A DNA stretch of 11,946 nucleotides from a virus (taxonomy: Duplodnaviria > Heunggongvirae > Uroviricota > Caudoviricetes): the IMG/VR virus record IMGVR_UViG_2585427728_000004; one strand, 5' to 3'. Shown here piece by piece: positions 1,369 to 11,946 of this stretch (its first letter is position 1; each line of letters starts with the position of its first letter). Under the pieces are notes generated by a model. The model made no database searches, was not told where the DNA came from, and saw only the letters and a program-made list of their open reading frames with translations. The translations under genes and the position numbers were made by a program.

Positions 1369-1930
1369 TTAACACTGTATTTAGAATAATCAGATGCTCC
1401 ACTTCCCGGAGCACCACTGGAACCACCTGAAACAAATGTCATCGAATGGGTATGTGCACCGGCTGAAGCAGCCGTACCGCTAACACTATGGGTATGCGCC
1501 CCGGTGTTATTCGTGGATTTAGTGCCGTAATCAAACGACGATGTGGTTTTCGTACCCAAATCCGTACTGGATGCGCTGGCGCTGTGGGTGTGCGATTTAA
1601 TGCCGTCCTGTTCCTGAGACAATATGGCTCGACCACTGGCGGGCTTGCCCTTAATCGTCCAGCCACGCAAATCAGGGATCACGCCTGACGGATAAGCGGC
1701 AGCAAGTTTCGGGTAGGCAGATTTGTCAAAAGTCTGCCCCTGCATCAGGGCATAACCAGACGGAACGGTATCTGATGGCCACGGGATTGGTGCGCCGACT
1801 GGGTAGCTTTCTGGTGGAAGATTTTTCGAGGTATAAACTTCTGCCCAGTCTTCCTCAAAACCATAGCCATCTCTTGAAGAACGGTAGAACAGACCTCCAT
1901 TTCTGTAATGCGCCTTCATCTGCAGGGTCC
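1338..1930 (-). pseudogene. Side tail fiber protein C-terminal fragment (Stf/gp37-like tip with GAHTHS repeats), lacking its N-terminal part; approximate boundaries
   Basis: ORF 1284..2051 contains [12 protein letters not shown]...[34 protein letters not shown] followed by three GAHTHS repeats typical of lambda Stf/T4 gp37-type fiber tips. The first ~44 codons and last ~17 codons of that ORF are out-of-frame readings of terminase and ydfI DNA respectively. Confidence 0.55.
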
Positions 1931-3339
1931 GGCAACTTCCGACTCCGGTAGCTGGCCGGATCAATTCGCTGGCTCTCCCCGTCGCTGTCACCGCGCAATG
2001 ACTGCGTGATGTTGTAACGATCAATAATCCAGCGTTCGCCACGGCTGCCATAGCCCGTTACCTGAACCACAAAACGGCGATGACGTCCCGCCTGCACATC
2101 CACTGTCGCCACAAGGAAATTAACGCCATCCGGCACACTGCGGGAAGGAACTGGCTCTGCCCGCTGCTCAAGCAATTCACTTTTTCGTTGCTCCATGCTG
2201 GCGCGGGGAAGATAAGGTAATCCCCAGTCGGTATTGATAACCGTCTTGAGTGTCTCTTCACTTCCGGTTGTCTCGTATTCCTGTTCTGCAGTAAGCAGCT
2301 TGTAAACGAGTTGCGAGAGTGTCTGATAAGCAGCTGCCGGACCCTCCATCCAGAATGACGCAATACGTGAACGCCGGGGATCACCATAACGACTGCCATC
2401 TGCATTGATGGATTCACCATCCCGTAACCAGACCCCACGTCCGTTCAGCTCGCGTTTTTGTTCAGGCAAAATCCGTCCTGAACAGGAAGGACACTGAATA
2501 TAAGCCGCCTCACTTGCCAGCACAGGATCGGCAATATCACGGAAACCAGCAACCACATCGCCGCAGGGCTGAAAATACTCACCACAGTGTGGACAGGGCC
2601 AGTACCAGCGACGGCGATCGCCACGGTTATAGAGCGACAGGATCCCCGTGGTTGGTGGAGCCTCATGCGGTGAAGTCCGTCGCCATTTCACATCCTTCAC
2701 ATCCCTGCCGGGGGAACTCTCCACCAGCGTCATACCACTGGACATAAATGTGGTGGTACGTTTTGAGGCAAGAGAGAAGGCATCCCCCTCACCATCAATA
2801 TCTTCCGGAAAACGGTCATAATCCGTCAGCGCCACGCATTTATAATCTGATGAAGACATGATATTGACTGACGGCCAGCCGATTTTCAGGTAGTTGCCAG
2901 CAAGGAATGTTCTGTCATAAACGTTGTTGTCATTTTTGTTCGGACTCAGGCGACTGACCACTTCCGGGCTGACGCGAAACGTTCTGGCGAGTCGTTTTTT
3001 GGAGTGTTCGCGGGCTTTTTCCTCCGTCATCTGAATGATCAGCATATCAGCAGGATCGCAAATCACGTTGTAAATCACCCAGCCGTCAATCAGGCCGATA
3101 GTCTTGCCGGTTCGTGCCGGGCCAACAAATATCACTGCGTCGTATTCACGCGAGGCCAGGCAGTTCATAGGCTCAATAACATACGGTGCCACCAGCGGAT
3201 CCCACGGGACTGAGTTCCCTGCCCCCATGGGCACCCGCATATACTGAGCAACGGCATCAGCAACCCGCATTCGTCTCGGTGCGCGAAGGATATAACCTGA
3301 ATCGGTTCGTGCTGCCTTTGCGGTTTCCTGATTCAGCAT
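1855..3339 (-). CDS. Phage terminase large subunit (lambda GpA family), C-terminally truncated and fused into tail-fiber DNA; probably non-functional
   Basis: 494-aa ORF with Walker-A-like GPARTGKT, the CPHCGE motif and a WIIDRYNI segment matching the lambda gpA nuclease-domain region. Lambda gpA is about 640 aa; homology ends near residue 465 and the frame then runs through tail-fiber sequence to a stop. The start ATG overlaps the upstream stop (TAATG). Confidence 0.75.
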
Positions 3340-4592: not shown

Positions 4593-4794
4593 TTTGTCGC
4601 TCCATTCGTTTGCTCTTCACTTGCGGCTAAAAATATAACGTCAAATCACTCAGCATGAAAGAGTGAAAGTTTCAGCGCGTTTCCCTTACATAATCTGTCG
4701 TTTGTATTCTCTTCAGGCATACCGGAAAGACTAGGTATTGTCACACAACCAATACCATCGACAATCGAGATTTATATCTATTCGGTAATGTTTA

Positions 4795-4825
4795 AATATA
4801 ACAAAACCCCGTAAAAACGAGGTTT
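4795..4825 (-). terminator. Candidate intrinsic terminator downstream of gnsB
   Basis: Minus-strand RNA AAACCUCG-UUUUUA-CGGGGUUU (8-bp stem including one G-U pair) followed by a U-rich run; found by eye, not energy-scored. Confidence 0.35.
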
Positions 4826-4887
4826 ATGGGTAATTTGTATTGTTGAATAGCATCTGATGAGAAATTGATGCTAATACTATAAACATG

Positions 4888-5061
4888 CTAGATTAAATCA
4901 ATCTTGATATCATAGCTTTCAAGACCAGTCATTTTTTCCCGTGCAGTAAACTGGATACTGGTAACTTCTTTCCCGGTCTTTTTCTTAAGCTCAATGATTT
5001 TTTTTGTTATATATTCAGAAATATCTGCTTCTGTTTTTGTTTTTAACTCTTCAATGTTCAT
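4888..5061 (-). CDS. gnsB: GnsA/GnsB family protein (57 aa)
   Basis: MNIEELKTKTEADISEYITKKIIELKKKTGKEVTSIQFTAREKMTGLESYDIKIDLI closely matches the GnsA/GnsB family. AGAGGA Shine-Dalgarno precedes two adjacent ATGs (5064 and 5061); the ORF-track N-terminal extension to 5154 is probably not translated. Confidence 0.8.
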   Translation of the reverse strand: MNIEELKTKTEADISEYITKKIIELKKKTGKEVTSIQFTAREKMTGLESYDIKIDLI

Positions 5062-5233
5062 CATTTCCTCTTTTAGTCTGTTATGACTGTCCTGGTACAC
5101 AGTAGTGTCAATTATATGGAGCAAACGTATAAAAGATAAGATGAAACATCGCAATAATCAACATACGACGGTCTAAATTTCACACAAACAGATAAAGATG
5201 ATTATCATTTATTATCAATGCATTAGAATCAAA

Positions 5234-5389
5234 TCAATTCAAGAGTCTCATTGCTGCTTCCAGAATTTCTTCTGAAGTTACATGTCGATCCGCTGCTACA
5301 TAAATGACTTTATGATCTCCGGTCAGAGATGGAAACCCTGCAGCCATTACAGTGAGGTGTGTTGTTTCGCCATTTGGATATTCACGCAT
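5234..5389 (-). CDS. ynfN: Qin-prophage-type small protein YnfN-like (51 aa from MREYPNG; upstream in-frame starts at 5410 and 5464 also possible)
   Basis: ORF 5234..5503; the 51-aa version starting at MREYPNGETTHL has GGAG upstream and matches the length I remember for K-12 YnfN. A terminator-like hairpin at 5507..5530 argues against the longest start. Confidence 0.55.
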   Translation of the reverse strand: MREYPNGETTHLTVMAAGFPSLTGDHKVIYVAADRHVTSEEILEAAMRLLN

Positions 5390-5506
5390 GATGGTGTTAA
5401 CTCCGGTCATCACTGGCACTACCATTGCTGGTTCAGAGTTAAAAAAAACTATTATTTTTTTCATAATGTTACCGTAATATGTGAGTATCCATCGACTAGA
5501 CACTAA

Positions 5507-5530
5507 GCAAAAAAGCTCCCGAAGGAGCCT
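5507..5530 (-). terminator. Candidate intrinsic terminator downstream of cspI (GC stem with UUCG tetraloop and U6 tract on the minus strand)
   Basis: Plus strand aaaaaaGCTCCcgaaGGAGCcttcatttt; on the minus strand GGCUCC-UUCG-GGAGCU is followed by UUUUUU. A U-rich run also follows on the plus strand, so it may be bidirectional. Confidence 0.4.
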
Positions 5531-5735
5531 TCATTTTCACTTTCTTAAATCTAACGACAGATGGCTAACATTTAAGTATTGTGAAATATTATCAAATGTA
5601 ATCATCATTGATTTACAAAAGATACATTTTGCCCCGAAAGGATTTCTGTCAGAAACATCAAAAGATGATGTTCTATACTGAGAACCATGGCAACACGGGC
5701 ATCTAAAGTGAATATGGTTTGTAATATTTTCTACC

Positions 5736-5948
5736 TCAAAGTGCCACTACATGAACAGCTGCAGGGCCTTTAGGTCCGTTCTCAATACCAAATTCGACTT
5801 CCTGATTCTCAGTTAACGTTTTGAAATCGTTGCTCTGAATAGCTGAGAAATGCACAAACACATCTTTGCTACCATCTTTCGGCGTGATGAAACCAAAACC
5901 TTTTTCAGGGTTAAACCATTTCACTAAACCAGTCATTTTGTTAGACAT
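5736..5948 (-). CDS. cspI: Cold shock protein CspA family (70 aa), CspI-like
   Basis: [70 protein letters not shown] carries the RNP1/RNP2 motifs (KGFGFI, VFVHF) of cold shock proteins; AAGG Shine-Dalgarno and a long AT-rich leader lie upstream. Confidence 0.9.
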
Positions 5949-6311
5949 CATTATTACCTTTTGAAGAAGTTAGCCCTTGGGCAGAATGGTCCGAAAAAAA
6001 ATATCAGAAAGAAAAACCAACAAGGAAATCTCAAGAGGTACAAATAATAAAATTATAACAATGACTGCTTCAGATAATTTTGTAACAAACCAGAACACCA
6101 TTAACGCATGATTAACCAACCATAGCAAGGATTACTTTTGTAAAGAAAAACACACGAATGAAACAATAGCTTTATTTATTAATAAAACGTGTCATTCTGT
6201 CTAATGACCTTTTATCTTACCCTTAAGATTTCAAGGATTTTGACTCATGGAAGAGTCCTTTTTATTTAAATTTCACATTCAGCGCTAAAAATAATCCGAT
6301 TTAATATTAAT

Positions 6312-7334
<1,023 letters not shown>

Positions 7335-7338
<4 letters not shown>

Positions 7339-7646
7339 AGATATTTATGATGAGGACGCTCGTGCTTATTGGCAGGATTTTCAATCTTAAAGGAGTACTG
7401 ATGCTGCAGATAAGACTCAACTTTTTCTGACAATTTTTCTGCTACTTCCAGGAAGACTTGCCGGACGCTCATTCTGGCTGCTGCCTCATAAAACTCCAGC
7501 ACAGCTCCTTCAACACGGTCCATGGCGACATCCAGGCCAAAAATTTCACCGTCAAAGCGTTCTTTGTCCTGTAAGGCTACAGTTACCGTAACTTTATTCT
7601 CAAAATTACGGACTCCTTTCACAACCAGTTCATAGTCTTGAGTCAT
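7335..7646 (-). CDS. ydfR: YdfR-like protein (DUF1327), unknown function, embedded in the lysis cassette
   Basis: 103-aa ORF with strong GAGGAGAG Shine-Dalgarno, start 4 nt after the holin stop; its stop overlaps the endolysin ATG (ATGA). Confidence 0.75.
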
Positions 7647-7650
7647 TGGA

Positions 7651-7866
7651 TTACTCTCCTCTCGCAGCCTTACGCCTGTCTTCTTTAATCTTGAAATAAA
7701 GATTTGTCAGATACGTCAGCATGCCAAATACCAGACTACCCAATACACCTATTGCCGCCCACTGTGAGGGCGTGACTTTATCGAGCAACTGTAAAAACCA
7801 GTAGCCAGCACTGCCTGCAGAGGTGCTGTAGGCGATGCCCGTTGTTAACTTATCCATGGATTTCAT
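7651..7866 (-). CDS. essQ: Pinholin, phage 21 S21-like class II holin with dual-start motif (71 aa)
   Basis: [71 protein letters not shown] has two transmembrane segments and a charged C-terminus; GGAGGTGA Shine-Dalgarno upstream. The ORF-track extension to 7950 is read-through. Confidence 0.85.
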
Positions 7867-7954
7867 AGCCTCACCTCCGCAGATAACGGATGGTGTACAC
7901 GGTTTGGTTCGAAGAAGGAAAGAAGTTACATTAGCGTAAGGCCCGAACATCTAT

Positions 7955-7987
7955 TCAAAAAGAAAAACGCCAGCAATTATTCTGGCG
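7955..7987 (-). terminator. Candidate intrinsic terminator between the AraC-family gene and the holin
   Basis: Plus strand aaaaaCGCCAGcaattattCTGGCG; on the minus strand CGCCAG-aauaauug-CUGGCG is followed by UUUUUCUUUUU. Confidence 0.45.
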
Positions 7988-8056
7988 TAGCTAAAAATAT
8001 CGTATAATCTTACACTTCAAAAAATAACTTTATAAAATACCATCACATCATATCTT

Positions 8057-8770
8057 CTAAGAAAATCTTGATAAATATTGGTGCGGAGGCACACCAAAAT
8101 ATCCTCTAAAAACACTTACAAAATATGATGCATTGTCATACCCGCATATTCCCGCCACCTTGCCGACAGTATGGTTACTGTAGATCAATAATCTTTGCGC
8201 CATCATCATTCGTTCTTCAAGAATTAATTTACTAAACGATAATCCTTCGTCTTTTAATTTTCTTTTTAACAAACTCTCGCTCATATATAATCTTGAAGAT
8301 ATATCACAAAGTCTCCATGACGCAGAGATATCCGAGTGAATAATAGCCTTAACTTTACAACCTAAGCTATTAAGACTTCCGAACAAAAAACTTTGCACTA
8401 TTTTCTCTGAAGATAAGACAGCAAGACATGCAAGTGATATTTGATTTCTAACTACATCCACGGTTTTGCTATCACAATTCAAGCATGCAACCAAGTTCTT
8501 TAACAATGAAAAATCTTCACATTCTACTATCAAGTATGACGGATAAAACCTTCTTACAGAAAAAGGTGAGAGTGTGTAGTTTTTAAAGAAATCATTAACT
8601 GTTTTCTCCTCAACATCTACGATCATTAGATGATCTGTATTTGACGAAAAAAGATCTTTTAAATTGTATTCAATGAGGACAGCATTTCCTTTTTTAAACA
8701 AAATATCTTCTTTACCAATTCGGACACCAAACGAGTTCAACACCAAAATGATAGAACATATGTATGGCAT
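8057..8770 (-). CDS. AraC/XylS-family transcriptional regulator (AppY/Rns-like size class, 237 aa from the ATG at 8770)
   Basis: C-terminal double HTH typical of AraC family (LLKRKLKDEGLSFSKLILEERMMMAQRLL...VGKVAGICGYDNASYFVSVFRGYFGVPPHQY). AGGTGG Shine-Dalgarno 5 nt before the ATG at 8770; the ORF-track start at 8779 is GTG. The gene and its ~400-bp upstream region are visibly AT-rich. Confidence 0.85.
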   Translation of the reverse strand: MPYICSIILVLNSFGVRIGKEDILFKKGNAVLIEYNLKDLFSSNTDHLMIVDVEEKTVNDFFKNYTLSPFSVRRFYPSYLIVECEDFSLLKNLVACLNCDSKTVDVVRNQISLACLAVLSSEKIVQSFLFGSLNSLGCKVKAIIHSDISASWRLCDISSRLYMSESLLKRKLKDEGLSFSKLILEERMMMAQRLLIYSNHTVGKVAGICGYDNASYFVSVFRGYFGVPPHQYLSRFS

Positions 8771-9176
8771 ATTATCCACCTGATATCATTGGGGTTACAC
8801 CAGGTAAGTATAGGTGGAAAATCAATATTCGCCAGTTCAACAATAAGGAAAATCTCATTGCATCACAACTATAAAACCATGTGTTTAACTCACAAAAAAC
8901 AAATCATTAAACTAATCTGTTATATTATAATAGCTGCGTGCAATAATAATATTATATGCTCTTAATATTCACTTGAAATATCTTCATATAAAAACAGATT
9001 GAATAAAATCTTTTGGGGCTGGTATGTTTACCAACATTAAATTGCATCTCAATGTTTTCTTTAGCGTGAACAGGATTTTTATAAAAACTGACACTATGAG
9101 CATCATAGCGTAGTTTTTACGATTGTAAATATCCTGCATACAGGAACTCATCACTTTCAGATGATATCGCATACAG
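8771..9176 (-). promoter_or_regulatory. AT-rich leader/promoter region of the AraC-family gene; candidate nucleoid-protein (H-NS-type) silencing target
   Basis: About 400 bp of very AT-rich non-coding DNA between two minus-strand genes. The only ORF here (8984..9172) is low-complexity with no ribosome-binding site. No specific promoter hexamers assigned. Confidence 0.3.
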
Positions 9177-10136
9177 TTAATTCACCATCAGTCTTAGAGC
9201 CAGTTCTTCCGGATAGGGATCGAAGTAGTTCTGTGTAAGCAAGTAATCATTAGGATACTCACCCAGATAATGCTTCAGCAGAGTCAACGGCGCAAGAAGA
9301 GGCAATGTGCCAAAGCGATAGTTAAGTATAACCTCGCTCAACTCTTTACGCTGGCGTGTACTTAAGTAATTACTAAAATACCCCTGTATATGCATCAGCA
9401 CATTCGTGTGATTTTTACGTGATGCTGGTTTTCTGAGAATCGCCATCAGATTATCACGATACACCTCAAAGTATGATTCAAGGTCCGCCCACTCGTGTAT
9501 TGCAGCCACAAATGGTCCCATATCTTTATAGCCTGCCTGGCTATGCGCCAACAACTGAAGCTTATAACGACTATGAAAAGCTAATAACTCTCTTCTTGAT
9601 AATTTCTCCTTGTAAAGGTGATTGAGCTCATGCAAAGCAAAAACTCTTTCAATAAAATTCTCACGAAGCACTGGATCATGTAATCGCCCATCCTCTTCAA
9701 CCGGTAGCCAGGAAAACTTTTCCATCAAAGTGCTCGTAAATAGTCCCACTCCATCTTTACGACCTCGATTACCATTTTCATCATAGACACGCACGCGCTC
9801 CATGCCACAGCTGGGAGATTTAGCACAAACCACAAACCCCGATACATCCTTTAATTTGTCCATATAAGAACGACTAAACTCTGTCATTCTCTCTGTCACA
9901 TCCTCATTCTGGTCGTGGCTGAAACACATCCGTATATTTCCTTGCTTCGAGCGCACAAGTCGTAGAGCAGGACGCGGAACTGGCAGCCCTATAGCCATTT
10001 CCGGACATACTGGTCTGAATGTTACCCATTCCACTAATTTGTCCATTAAAAAGTCATCTCTTTTGTGACCACCATCAAAACGAACAGCAGAACCGCCCAA
10101 ACAACCGCTGATCCCAATCACAGGTTTTTTTATCAT
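9177..10136 (-). CDS. DUF523/DUF1722 fusion protein (TudS-like putative [4Fe-4S] thionucleobase desulfidase with YbgA-like domain)
   Basis: N-terminal MIKKPVIGISGCLGGSAVRFDGGHKRD with three spaced cysteines (GISGC, PVCPE, SPSCG) as in DUF523/TudS; the C-terminal half resembles DUF1722 (YbgA). Strong GGGGGAGGAA Shine-Dalgarno 4 nt upstream of the ATG. Confidence 0.8.
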   Translation of the reverse strand: MIKKPVIGISGCLGGSAVRFDGGHKRDDFLMDKLVEWVTFRPVCPEMAIGLPVPRPALRLVRSKQGNIRMCFSHDQNEDVTERMTEFSRSYMDKLKDVSGFVVCAKSPSCGMERVRVYDENGNRGRKDGVGLFTSTLMEKFSWLPVEEDGRLHDPVLRENFIERVFALHELNHLYKEKLSRRELLAFHSRYKLQLLAHSQAGYKDMGPFVAAIHEWADLESYFEVYRDNLMAILRKPASRKNHTNVLMHIQGYFSNYLSTRQRKELSEVILNYRFGTLPLLAPLTLLKHYLGEYPNDYLLTQNYFDPYPEELALRLMVN

Positions 10137-10328
10137 TTCCTCCCCCTTGACTAATTCATTAACACATAAACTTTGTAGTGCACGGACTAAATTGCCTTTC
10201 TGGCTTCATCACTGACAATTTTTCTGTTATTGACTATTCCTAATATAGTAGGAAAGTTCTTTAAGTGATCGGTCGTACTCATCTATCTTTCATACTTACT
10301 CTCAACTATCAAAAGTACAGGATTTATT
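10137..10328. promoter_or_regulatory. Divergent intergenic region between the DUF523/DUF1722 gene and the lipocalin gene; presumed to hold both promoters
   Basis: 192-bp gap between divergently oriented starts; contains TTGACT- and TATAGT-like hexamers but no confident -35/-10 pairing by eye. Confidence 0.3.
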
Positions 10329-10853
10329 ATGAAGTTATGGCCTGTGTTGACTGGCATTGCACTCTCTTTCACTCTTATAGCATGTAAGGCCCCGACACCA
10401 CCTAAAGGTGTGCAGCCGATTACAAATTTTGACGCCAACCGCTACCTCGGAAAATGGTATGAAATAGCTCGCCTCGAGAACTGGTTCGAACGTGGTCTGG
10501 AACAGGTCAGCGCTACTTATGAAAAACGGAACGACGGAGGGATTCGCGTACTTAACCGTGGATACGATCCAACGAAAAACAAATGGAGCGAGAGCGAAGG
10601 TAAAGCATACTTTACTGGAGATACTAAAACTGCAGCGTTGAAAGTTTCGTTTTTTGGCCCCTTCTATGGTGGCTATAATGTAATCAAACTGGATGATGAG
10701 TATAAGTATGCTCTTGTCAGTGGTCCGAACAGAGAATACCTATGGATTCTGGCAAGGACCCAAACTATTCCAGATAATGTAAAAGCAGACTATGTGCGTA
10801 CCGCTCAAAAGTTGGGATTCAATGTCAATGAACTATTATGGGTTAAACAATAA
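10329..10853 (+). CDS. Bacterial lipocalin Blc-like outer-membrane lipoprotein (174 aa)
   Basis: Signal peptide with LIAC lipobox (MKLWPVLTGIALSFTLIAC), then Blc motifs NFDANRYLGKWYEIARLENWFERGLEQVSATY and GKAYFTGDTKTAALKVSFFGPFYGGYNVIKLD...YLWILARTQ. AGGA Shine-Dalgarno upstream. Only plus-strand gene in the window. Confidence 0.85.
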   Translation: MKLWPVLTGIALSFTLIACKAPTPPKGVQPITNFDANRYLGKWYEIARLENWFERGLEQVSATYEKRNDGGIRVLNRGYDPTKNKWSESEGKAYFTGDTKTAALKVSFFGPFYGGYNVIKLDDEYKYALVSGPNREYLWILARTQTIPDNVKADYVRTAQKLGFNVNELLWVKQ

Positions 10854-10881
10854 AATCCCCACCCGAAATGATACTTATTAG

Positions 10882-10908
10882 AAAAAAACCAGCCTTTGGG
10901 GAGGCTGG
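10882..10908 (-). terminator. Intrinsic terminator ~100 nt downstream of the Q gene (tR'-like candidate)
   Basis: Plus strand gaaaaaaaCCAGCCTttggggAGGCTGG; on the minus strand a 7-bp GC-rich stem with 6-nt loop is followed by UUUUUUUU. No T-run follows on the plus strand, so it is unidirectional. Confidence 0.5.
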
Positions 10909-11008
10909 CTAAATCAGGAAACAAGCTGTTATATGATAATAACTACGTTGCGATTCCAACATTTAAAATGTTAGACTAATGAAAATCAGACAGCAACTTT
11001 TCCTTTAA

Positions 11009-11386
11009 TTATTTCGAACAATCAGCATCCATCTCCAATCGGAGATCCAACACCATCAGCATGCCCTCCACTACGCCCTCAGCTTTCTGGAGCATCCTGC
11101 CAACCCAACAATCAGATCGCCCATGCTTACGTGCAAGCGCCATAAAAGTCATGCCGCCGACATAATAGTCCACCAATAAATCATGTAAATCGCTGTTGTT
11201 TTTTTTCAGGCGAGCCATACATTCACAAATGATCATCGCGTCATCGTCACAGCATTGCGGACGAGATCTTACTTTTGAAGGAATTAATCCCTTAAAACCG
11301 GCGGCAATGGACGACCAGGTCACATCTTCATGATTATTAGCCGCCCATGCCCCCCAACGCTCAAGAACCATCTGAATATCACGCAT
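11009..11386 (-). CDS. Late-gene antitermination protein Q (short QuuD/phage-82-type, ~125 aa)
   Basis: [24 protein letters not shown]...[18 protein letters not shown]... matches the short Q antiterminator family with its cysteine cluster; GGAG Shine-Dalgarno 9 nt before the ATG at 11386. The ORF-track start at 11401 is TTG. Confidence 0.75.
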
Positions 11387-11403
11387 CAACTTACTCCACA
11401 AAA

Positions 11404-11946
11404 TTAGGCCAGCACACCAATTGCCAGCGCGCGATCGATAAATCGAAAAATCAGCTCCAGTTGGGAGCCATACTTCTCTTCAAATGCCACGGTATCCGTA
11501 TGCAACTCGTCGTGATGCTTTCTGCACAAAGGCAAAACAAAGAGATCATGTGCTTTGGTTCCCATTCCGCCCTGCCCGTGACCAATCAGATGATGCGGAT
11601 CGTCGGCTGGCATACCATATCGGTGAATAACGGTTTCGCTGTGATGATAATCGCCGTGTGGCCACTGGCAGGATTTAATATGGCGCAACAGCCAGTCAGA
11701 CAATGCACCAGCACCACCAGCAGCACGAATTACCCGTGCGTTACTGAAAAACGGCAGCAATGTTTTGTCTTCCACCAGCGGCTGGCGAACGGCAGGAACG
11801 ACCCCGGACGGCAGATTACGCATGCTTTTCGGTTCCGGCTCCACCAGTACCCGGGTATTGTGGAATACCGGCATGGATTCACGGCCCGGCTTAACGACCA
11901 CCAGCCCGAGTTCCGGTACCAGAACAGGTCGAAGTAATACCCGCAC
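11404..11946 (-). CDS. DUF968-family prophage protein (YdfU-like), C-terminal ~180 aa; gene continues beyond the window end
   Basis: ORF runs off the window edge; contains the HNH/zinc-like motif [28 protein letters not shown] and sits immediately upstream of Q as ydfU does in Qin. Confidence 0.6.

Follow-up and report, generated by a model that had tools for sequence, protein, structure and literature searches.

RudS enzymes, which are fusions of TudS and DUF1722 domains, strip 4-thiouridine (s4U) from tRNA (Jamontas et al., NAR 2024, PMC11417400). In that work every RudS variant tested, including RudS_vir of Escherichia phage 1H12, cut tRNA s4U on overexpression in Escherichia coli, RudS_KT shortened the growth delay caused by ultraviolet A (UVA) from about 105 to about 60 min, and Enterobacter cloacae rudS with its MerR neighbor was tied to UVA adaptation (PMC11417400). 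The lipocalin gene blc has been listed as a moron in >50% of infant-gut lambda phages (Mathieu et al., 2020, PMC6969025), and the prophage AraC-type regulators PatE, PsrB, and AppY switch on GAD/hdeAB acid resistance (PMC10877973, PMC10057817). Here we describe a stretch of 11,946 nucleotides (nt) (IMG/VR record IMGVR_UViG_2585427728_000004; hereafter the window) in which an AraC-type regulator gene (araC), a rudS gene, and a blc gene lie together between a Q antiterminator gene and a P21-type holin gene. The trio is probably a moron cassette in the late-operon leader of a widespread, mosaic lambdoid Q-to-holin module, preserved here in a dead Qin-type prophage. The genes of the module are as follows:

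11009 to 11386, minus strand: Q antiterminator gene, 125 residues from the ATG at 11386, in an open frame that reaches 11401; Pfam Phage_antitermQ (PF06530), E = 8e-51
10329 to 10853, plus strand: blc, a Blc-like outer-membrane lipocalin lipoprotein of 174 residues; convergent with the late transcript
9177 to 10136, minus strand: rudS, a TudS(DUF523)-DUF1722 fusion of 319 residues
8057 to 8770, minus strand: araC, an AraC/XylS regulator of the YdeO/PatE/GadX-Rns/ToxT class, 237 residues
7651 to 7866, minus strand: P21-type holin gene, 71 residues; Phage_holin_2_1 (PF04971), E = 6e-34; essD in RefSeq

The window is a decayed Qin-type cryptic E. coli prophage that adjoins ydfI (1-1221), and a RefSeq genome with 99.9% identity to it over 9.7 kb carries the same annotation. 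Along the minus strand, a ydfU fragment is followed by Q, rudS, araC, and the holin gene, and then by ydfR, the endolysin gene, rzpQ, an AT-rich cspI/gnsB block, and terminase remnants; blc is the sole plus-strand gene of the Q-to-holin series. A preliminary description of the stretch, drawn from its letters alone, had placed three cargo genes between Q and the holin gene. All three are intact in this slot, on the strands given there, next to a holin of the P21 (S21) type, and related Qin prophages hold other genes at the same site. The proposed families (AraC, DUF523/DUF1722, and lipocalin) were likewise recovered, with Pfam E-values from 1e-16 to 1e-43 and with Blc above its NCBIfam cut-off, and araC, rudS, and blc each have a PHROG family of their own. 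The Q protein is a distant match (E = 5e-9) to the Q21 structures 6P18/6JNX.

Comparison of the Q-to-S (holin) interval across related prophages, which the preliminary description had proposed as a way to define an insert, did yield boundaries, and these are wider than the trio. Relative to K-12 Qin, homology stops at 7895 and restarts at 11404, and the swapped segment (7896-11403), which includes Q, is filled in K-12 Qin by a 250-residue ydfT and by cspB/cspF. Relative to other backbones, the shared block spans 7650-11428 (3.8 kb), from the holin stop codon to just past the Q start; the holin gene forms its downstream edge, homology with these backbones beginning at 7650. The exchanged unit is larger than the trio, with Q, cargo, and holin traveling as one block; all backbones examined have, next to the trio, a Q gene at 97-100% identity. 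The order Q-blc-rudS-araC-holin occurs on Qin-type, P27-family terminase/HK97-family protease, and lambda O/P-nin backbones, in the isolated phages IdasGreatGrand and 1H12, and in 36 IMG/VR contigs wherever the fetched stretch was long enough, with alleles that co-vary in three groups. In phage 1H12 the trio consists of gp65 (Blc, 96% identical), gp66 (RudS_vir), and gp67, annotated as "hypothetical" and here recognized as AraC-type (77%). The cassette matches 1154 of 5426 complete E. coli genomes (about 21%), and 881 of these matches cover at least 80% of the query.

The trio has the attributes of a moron: it is present or absent among relatives, K-12 Qin being homologous on both sides yet carrying cspB/cspF and another Q, and it combines a deviant GC content (0.385 against 0.47 in the flanks) with a conserved terminator of its own (7988-7967). 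The ratio of non-synonymous to synonymous divergence (dN/dS) between allele groups is 0.08-0.27 across all three cargo genes (blc, 0.08-0.23; rudS, 0.11-0.22; araC, about 0.22), indicating purifying selection. The rest of the prophage has decayed. Relative to the 99.9%-identical strain H2, the endolysin gene (rrrQ, 6806-7338, minus strand) has a 1-bp deletion near 7159 that splits it into two open reading frames (ORFs; 7138-7338 and 6806-7195), and the lysis cassette of the window is therefore broken; the virion genes are gone, and the terminase gene is truncated and fused to tail-fiber remnants. Because the cargo is intact and under purifying selection while the lysis and virion genes have decayed, the cassette would appear to benefit the lysogen.

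RudS of the window matches PF04463 (2-thiour_desulf/DUF523) over residues 7-149 (5.8e-40) and PF08349 (DUF1722) over residues 192-309 (9.4e-40), matches phrog_3275 over its full length, and is 92% identical to RudS_vir (Escherichia phage 1H12 gp66, H3V29_gp66) over all 319 residues. In RudS_KT the [4Fe-4S] ligands are C17/C49/C114 and the catalytic residues E51, S111/S113, and R60 (PMC11417400). Both the window protein and RudS_vir possess Cys12, Cys44, Cys110, Glu46, Ser107, Ser109, and Arg55, and these catalytic and ligand residues of the window protein also align to the TudS structure 6Z92. The product of the window gene is thus predicted to be an active tRNA s4U desulfidase. The preliminary description had taken the gene combination for an undescribed accessory system, but each part of the cassette is already known, the enzyme having been characterized from the same cassette in the sister phage 1H12 (PMC11417400) and blc being a known moron (PMC6969025). 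The cassettes of the window and of 1H12 share the TudS-DUF1722 architecture, Cys12/Cys44/Cys110, and the set of Q, blc, rudS, an araC-like gene, and holin; they differ in that the window rudS belongs to another allele group (dS to the 1H12 allele about 0.30) and resides on a decayed Qin-type prophage, whereas 1H12 is a viable lambda-like phage. RudS_vir was studied in isolation, with its neighbors undiscussed and E. coli said to have no RudS (PMC11417400), and our literature search for ybgA, lipocalin, and prophage together found no paper.

Blc matches Lipocalin_2 (PF08212, 7.5e-43), scores 312.6 bits with the NCBIfam Blc subfamily model NF007786 (cut-off, 267), and matches the Blc structures in the PDB at E = 1e-65 or better. 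Its translation contains the lipobox L16-I17-A18-C19 (LIAC; MKLWPVLTGIALSFTLIAC, then K), with Cys19 followed by Lys20. Lipoproteins without Asp at position +2 are sorted to the outer membrane, and Lys20 at this position fits such sorting. The window protein has the Lipocalin_2 fold, the lipobox, and the Blc subfamily score in common with K-12 Blc (b4149) and with the blc moron of infant-gut lambda phages, but it is only 59% identical to K-12 Blc, the housekeeping protein encoded beside ampC, and is nearer to the rudS-paired Blc proteins of other genera (77-80%).

A scan for RudS with one genome per species gave 41 loci outside E. coli (66-75% protein identity), in Citrobacter, Enterobacter, Klebsiella, Leclercia, Lelliottia, and others. 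In 21 of the 41, a blc gene (68-80% protein identity) lies upstream of rudS on the opposite strand, within about 1.5 kb in 20 cases and 5.5 kb away in one; the divergent chromosomal pair is conserved in Enterobacter, Leclercia, Lelliottia, and Citrobacter sedlakii. The usual chromosomal order is blc, merR (MlrA-like), a transthyretin-like gene, and rudS, flanked by genes that do not belong to phages (a fimbrial usher gene, for example); the intervening gene is of the transthyretin/HIUase family and sits between the MerR-type regulator and rudS in Enterobacter and its relatives (L018, 4661-5898, and similar loci). In C. sedlakii, blc and rudS are directly divergent, between genes for a BCCT-family transporter and a pseudouridine synthase. 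None of the 21 blc-paired loci contains Q, holin, or an araC of the window type. Since the chromosomal pair occurs without these phage genes and without this araC, it follows that the phage acquired the two genes jointly and shed the MerR regulator. The Enterobacter cloacae-type locus resembles the window in its divergent blc/rudS arrangement (Blc 77-80% and RudS 70-73% identical to the window proteins), and the differences are that neither the MerR regulator nor the transthyretin-like gene is present in the phage version and that the latter has gained an AraC-type gene downstream. The phage copies are strongly shifted toward AT, with a GC content of 0.43-0.47 (0.43 in the window), against 0.56-0.59 for the chromosomal homologs. 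When the blc-rudS spacer (10137-10328) was compared with two chromosomal Citrobacter spacers, only the coding edges aligned, so no ancestral operator can be traced. Citrobacter braakii RudS, the closest outside E. coli (75%), was considered as a donor context and set aside, as the copy examined (L008) is a lone chromosomal gene with AI-2E transporter and GGDEF-EAL neighbors; strain ATCC 51113 has two copies on separate contigs (L008 and L009), each 75% identical to the window protein.

The third gene was added separately and from elsewhere, such that the trio is not a single acquisition: araC is nearly confined to E. coli, is far more AT-rich than its neighbors, and is absent from the chromosomal loci, and these features argue for a separate origin. 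The suggestion in the preliminary description that the three genes were acquired as a separate block thus holds in part, in that blc and rudS were captured, whereas the mobile unit includes Q and holin and araC came on its own. The regulator probably starts at ATG 8770, as in RefSeq, rather than at GTG 8779, and has a C-terminal double helix-turn-helix (HTH) region (HTH_18, PF12833, 3.1e-16; HTH_AraC, PF00165, 6.1e-11). It belongs to phrog_1450 (8e-97), and its homologs are few, all from E. coli wherever the source organism is named. The best NCBIfam model is YdeO (NF007407), matched over the full length at 112.3 bits; the equivalog cut-off is 348 bits and identity to K-12 YdeO is 29%, and we therefore rejected orthology and regard the protein as YdeO-like. 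It is 48% identical over 237 residues, with a near-identical first HTH, to ECs_0287, the sole AraC-type gene product of Sp1/OI-8 in O157 Sakai. In an AlphaFold model of the regulator (pLDDT 81), the best full-length matches are CsvR, Rns, and ToxT (E = 1e-9 to 1e-11, at a TM-score of only about 0.45), and the model fits the DNA-binding domain of GadX (3MKL) with a root-mean-square deviation of 1.4 Å and 40% identity.

Like PatE, PsrA, PsrB, and AppY, the regulator is prophage-borne and AT-rich, of a size similar to their about 240-250 residues, with a C-terminal double HTH; for PsrA and PsrB the likeness is to their description and not to their sequences. The psrA and psrB genes have been described as associated with effector loci (PMC10877973). 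The regulator is not YdeO (29% identity) and is probably not an ortholog of PatE (48% to the presumed PatE), and it occupies the Q-to-holin slot whereas the presumed patE lies at the end of prophage Sp1. By analogy with PatE, our best guess, which is unproven, is that the regulator may act on acid-resistance genes. In several cassettes of the second allele group (L067, L071, L072, and L073; about 6303-7018) araC is frameshifted and rudS and blc are intact. Truncated forms of 133 and 195 residues (P0012-P0014) are common in the protein database, one cluster having 623 members.

The cargo region as a whole has a GC content of 0.385, against 0.474 for Q, 0.468 for the holin gene, 0.538 for ydfU, 0.510 for ydfI, and 0.447 for the window. 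The AT-richness that had earlier been judged by eye is therefore real but uneven, being strong only for araC (0.335) and the spacers (araC-rudS, 0.310) and modest for rudS (0.433) and blc (0.438). Moreover, low GC is not unique to the cargo block, because a second block at 4751-6311 has a value of 0.340. The features that surround and separate the cargo genes are as follows:

10968 to 10996, minus strand: putative late promoter PR', read by eye (TTGCTG, 17-nt spacer, TAACAT), directly downstream of Q
10880 to 10910, minus strand: tR'-type intrinsic terminator, hairpin 10910-10887 with a nine-pair stem and T7 run; -14.9 kcal/mol
10137 to 10328, no strand assigned: divergent blc/rudS control region (GC 0.344), conserved among phage alleles; the promoter is only presumed
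8771 to 9176, minus strand: AT-rich araC-rudS spacer (GC 0.310), with a weak hairpin just 3' of rudS (9111-9091)
8984 to 9172, minus strand: ORF of 62 residues within the AT-rich rudS-araC spacer
7967 to 7988, minus strand: intrinsic terminator between araC and holin, hairpin 7988-7967 with a seven-pair stem (five G-C) and T-rich run; -11.3 kcal/mol

Both minus-strand terminators that had been thought to bracket the insert exist and have conserved stems, but the upstream one, judging by position and conservation, is best understood as the late-operon leader's tR' rather than an edge of the insert. This terminator follows the Q stop codon by about 120 nt and stands behind the conserved promoter-like TTGCTG-17-TAACAT, and its hairpin stem is unchanged in four aligned alleles. 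The putative PR' itself matches 7 of 12 consensus positions and is not among the sites listed by the promoter scan; its sequence is kept in all four aligned alleles, with a TAATGT variant in L005. In the second terminator, stem and T-run are kept in four alleles although the flanking DNA diverges, and this terminator would close the cargo block and shield the lysis genes in the absence of Q. A terminator scan of the region found 7 terminator-like sites, against 2.3 +/- 1.3 in shuffles, and an Rfam scan of 7400-11600 at E <= 1 found no RNA family, with one sub-threshold match overlapping the tR' hairpin. The promoter scan listed sites at 9129-9102 and 8895-8868, the number of such sites being no higher than in shuffles; the hexamers at 8895-8868 lie upstream of araC in the araC-rudS spacer, and homology with the L005/L006 allele breaks within this spacer at 8865-8962. 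Searches of Pfam, PHROG, and PADLOC found no family for the 62-residue ORF in the spacer, and we regard this ORF as probably non-coding; phage IdasGreatGrand has a shorter ORF, annotated as hypothetical, at the equivalent site.

We propose the following model for the cassette. The blc and rudS genes would derive from a stress locus of an enterobacterial chromosome, from which they were captured as a divergent pair. RudS, with a [4Fe-4S] cluster on Cys12, Cys44, and Cys110, would turn tRNA s4U back into uridine, and this erasure would lower the main UVA chromophore in tRNA, leading to less UVA-triggered tRNA cross-linking, a smaller burst of guanosine tetraphosphate (ppGpp), and a shorter growth delay. 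Blc would handle lysophospholipids and fatty acids of the envelope as an outer-membrane lipoprotein. The other part, araC, would contribute a regulator of the YdeO/PatE class that is AT-rich and specific to E. coli and whose prophage relatives activate the host GAD/hdeAB regulon. In the lysogen, the three genes would run from their own promoters, with PR' transcripts ending at tR' (10887). Upon induction, Q-modified polymerase would pass both tR' and the second terminator (7967), and read-through would yield sense RNA for rudS and araC, and antisense RNA for blc, before the lysis genes are reached; this is the transcription geometry put forward in the preliminary description, and the orientations of the genes agree with it. 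The slot, just downstream of PR'-tR', is the same as that of stx in Stx phages and of cspB/cspF in K-12 Qin, which differ from the window in their cargo and in that the window has blc antiparallel to the late transcript. The logic of the slot is shared as well, in that Q-dependent read-through supplements any autonomous expression, as it does for stx. A role in the response to stress or photodamage, one of the candidates named at the outset, is the best-supported function.

RudS, and perhaps the whole cassette, could instead serve mainly the lytic cycle: sunlight that induces the SOS response would also cross-link s4U-containing tRNA, raise ppGpp, and slow translation, and s4U erasure would let the burst finish. 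We consider this possible, if rather doubtful. The Q-dependent late transcript reads both rudS and araC in sense, RudS shortens the UVA growth delay, and the AT shift of the phage copies noted above suggests long phage residence. Furthermore, an independent lineage (a prophage of Citrobacter sp. MGH106, L020 6001-6957, and six IMG/VR contigs, L086-L091 5001-5957) carries rudS alone, with a product 72% identical to the window protein and a GC content of 0.47; the gene is in an early/nin-type region, between DUF977 and a dinI-like gene and upstream of rusA, DUF968, and Q, where it would be expressed early after induction. Because there are two independent phage captures, and because rudS is in sense, we keep open that s4U erasure may aid the phage after induction by UV. 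However, the cassette has stayed intact under purifying selection in a prophage unable to lyse or package, which points to a benefit in the lysogen; by the time the late operon is expressed, UVA would already have done its damage, and no reversal of existing cross-links by RudS is known. Our literature search on s4U, growth delay, and prophages found nothing linking s4U to phage growth, which also counts against a role in the lytic cycle. A different proposal is that the three genes form one integrated system, in which the AraC-type protein supplants MerR as controller of blc and rudS and may sense fatty acids, like Rns/ToxT, with the lipocalin. The chromosomal locus does have a MerR/MlrA-like regulator between blc and rudS that the phage version lacks, the three genes always occur together with co-varying alleles, and the regulator model best matches the fatty-acid-binding proteins Rns, CsvR, and ToxT over its full length. 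Nevertheless, co-variation is expected from linkage alone, homologous regulators occur in prophages without nearby blc or rudS (O157 Sp1), and PatE, PsrB, and AppY act on host acid-resistance promoters; araC moreover differs greatly in composition, is limited to E. coli, and is frameshifted in several cassettes with intact rudS and blc. There is no evidence that the three genes act as one system, and we regard this proposal as unlikely. We also hold it improbable that the cassette is a phage-deployed switch on host tRNA modification, in which s4U erasure would uncouple the lysogen from the UVA-to-ppGpp growth arrest and let prophages induced by sunlight complete their lytic growth, while the AraC-type protein would replace MerR and, with the lipocalin, tie in an envelope or fatty-acid signal; if such a switch exists, the independent capture of rudS, next to dinI, by the second lineage would represent convergent selection for the same trick.

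Anti-phage defense or superinfection exclusion by the prophage is suggested by the location, as the Q-to-lysis slot and neighboring lambdoid regions often house exclusion genes, and some phage exclusion proteins are outer-membrane lipoproteins, like Blc. The phage exclusion raised in the preliminary description nonetheless finds no support: none of the four ORFs has a PADLOC match at E <= 0.01, the demonstrated activity of the enzyme is tRNA de-modification, and blc and rudS are an ordinary chromosomal pair with non-phage neighbors in other genera, such that a defensive role is very unlikely. The converse arrangement, a native E. coli chromosomal locus beside which phage genes were inserted, had been named as the case that would overturn a prophage cassette, and it could draw on blc and rudS being chromosomal neighbors in other Enterobacteriaceae. 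It is contradicted by the finding that the trio lies between Q and holin in every E. coli context examined, on at least three unrelated backbones and at different chromosomal positions, as well as in isolated phages, and that the same site in K-12 Qin has cspB/cspF; we consider it barely credible.

Several observations nevertheless weigh against a moron cassette that serves the lysogen through stress protection and acid resistance. That rudS here runs in sense with the late operon, and that the second lineage carries its rudS in the early region, fits a phage-serving role no less well than host conversion. The desulfidation activity of RudS_vir was below that of other RudS enzymes despite good protein levels (PMC11417400). 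The promoter scan did not rise above chance, with 13 sites against 11.7 expected from shuffles. As for the regulator, its score does not reach the equivalog threshold for YdeO, its identity to the presumed PatE is just 48%, and the equation of ECs_0287 with PatE (Z0321) is inferred from the Sp1/OI-8 location, not from sequence. Because some araC alleles are frameshifted or truncated, the regulator would be dispensable in part of the population, and on the evidence of these alleles it appears to be the most dispensable part of the cassette.

Elsewhere in the window, the truncated large terminase gene (1855-3339) abuts a tail-fiber remnant beside ydfI, of which 1453-1837 is 91% identical to K-12 stfQ, and the segment 1222-3339 lacks ydfJ, ynfT, ydfK, pinQ, and the portal fragment of the reference Qin-type prophage. 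The second AT-rich cargo block (4751-6311, GC 0.340), downstream of the lysis genes, contains homologs of gnsB, ynfN, ynfQ, and cspI and is about 93% identical to K-12 Qin. In the Qin-type prophage of strain H2 (L001, 18203-19978), an AIPR-family (abortive-infection-like) gene replaces the relBE of K-12 Qin, and this site is thus another variable cargo position in Qin-type prophages.

These findings imply no new protein family, mechanism, or system architecture. What they add is the limits of the mobile block, the descent of blc-rudS from a chromosomal pair with loss of MerR, the placement of the third gene in the PatE/YdeO class, the high prevalence of the cassette in E. coli, and a second phage lineage with rudS in its early region. 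The origin of the cassette can be traced to a chromosomal stress pair that would have been captured, relieved of MerR, shifted toward AT, and combined with a regulator of acid-resistance type that is specific to E. coli. The statement that E. coli lacks RudS/TudS homologs (PMC11417400) is true for laboratory strains but is contradicted by the 1154 of 5426 complete genomes that match the cassette; measurements of UVA and stringent-response physiology in K-12 or BL21 may therefore be unrepresentative of E. coli as a whole. The viable carriers 1H12 and IdasGreatGrand, together with the lineage that carries rudS only, could reveal which of the two, lysogen or phage, benefits from an eraser of tRNA modification.

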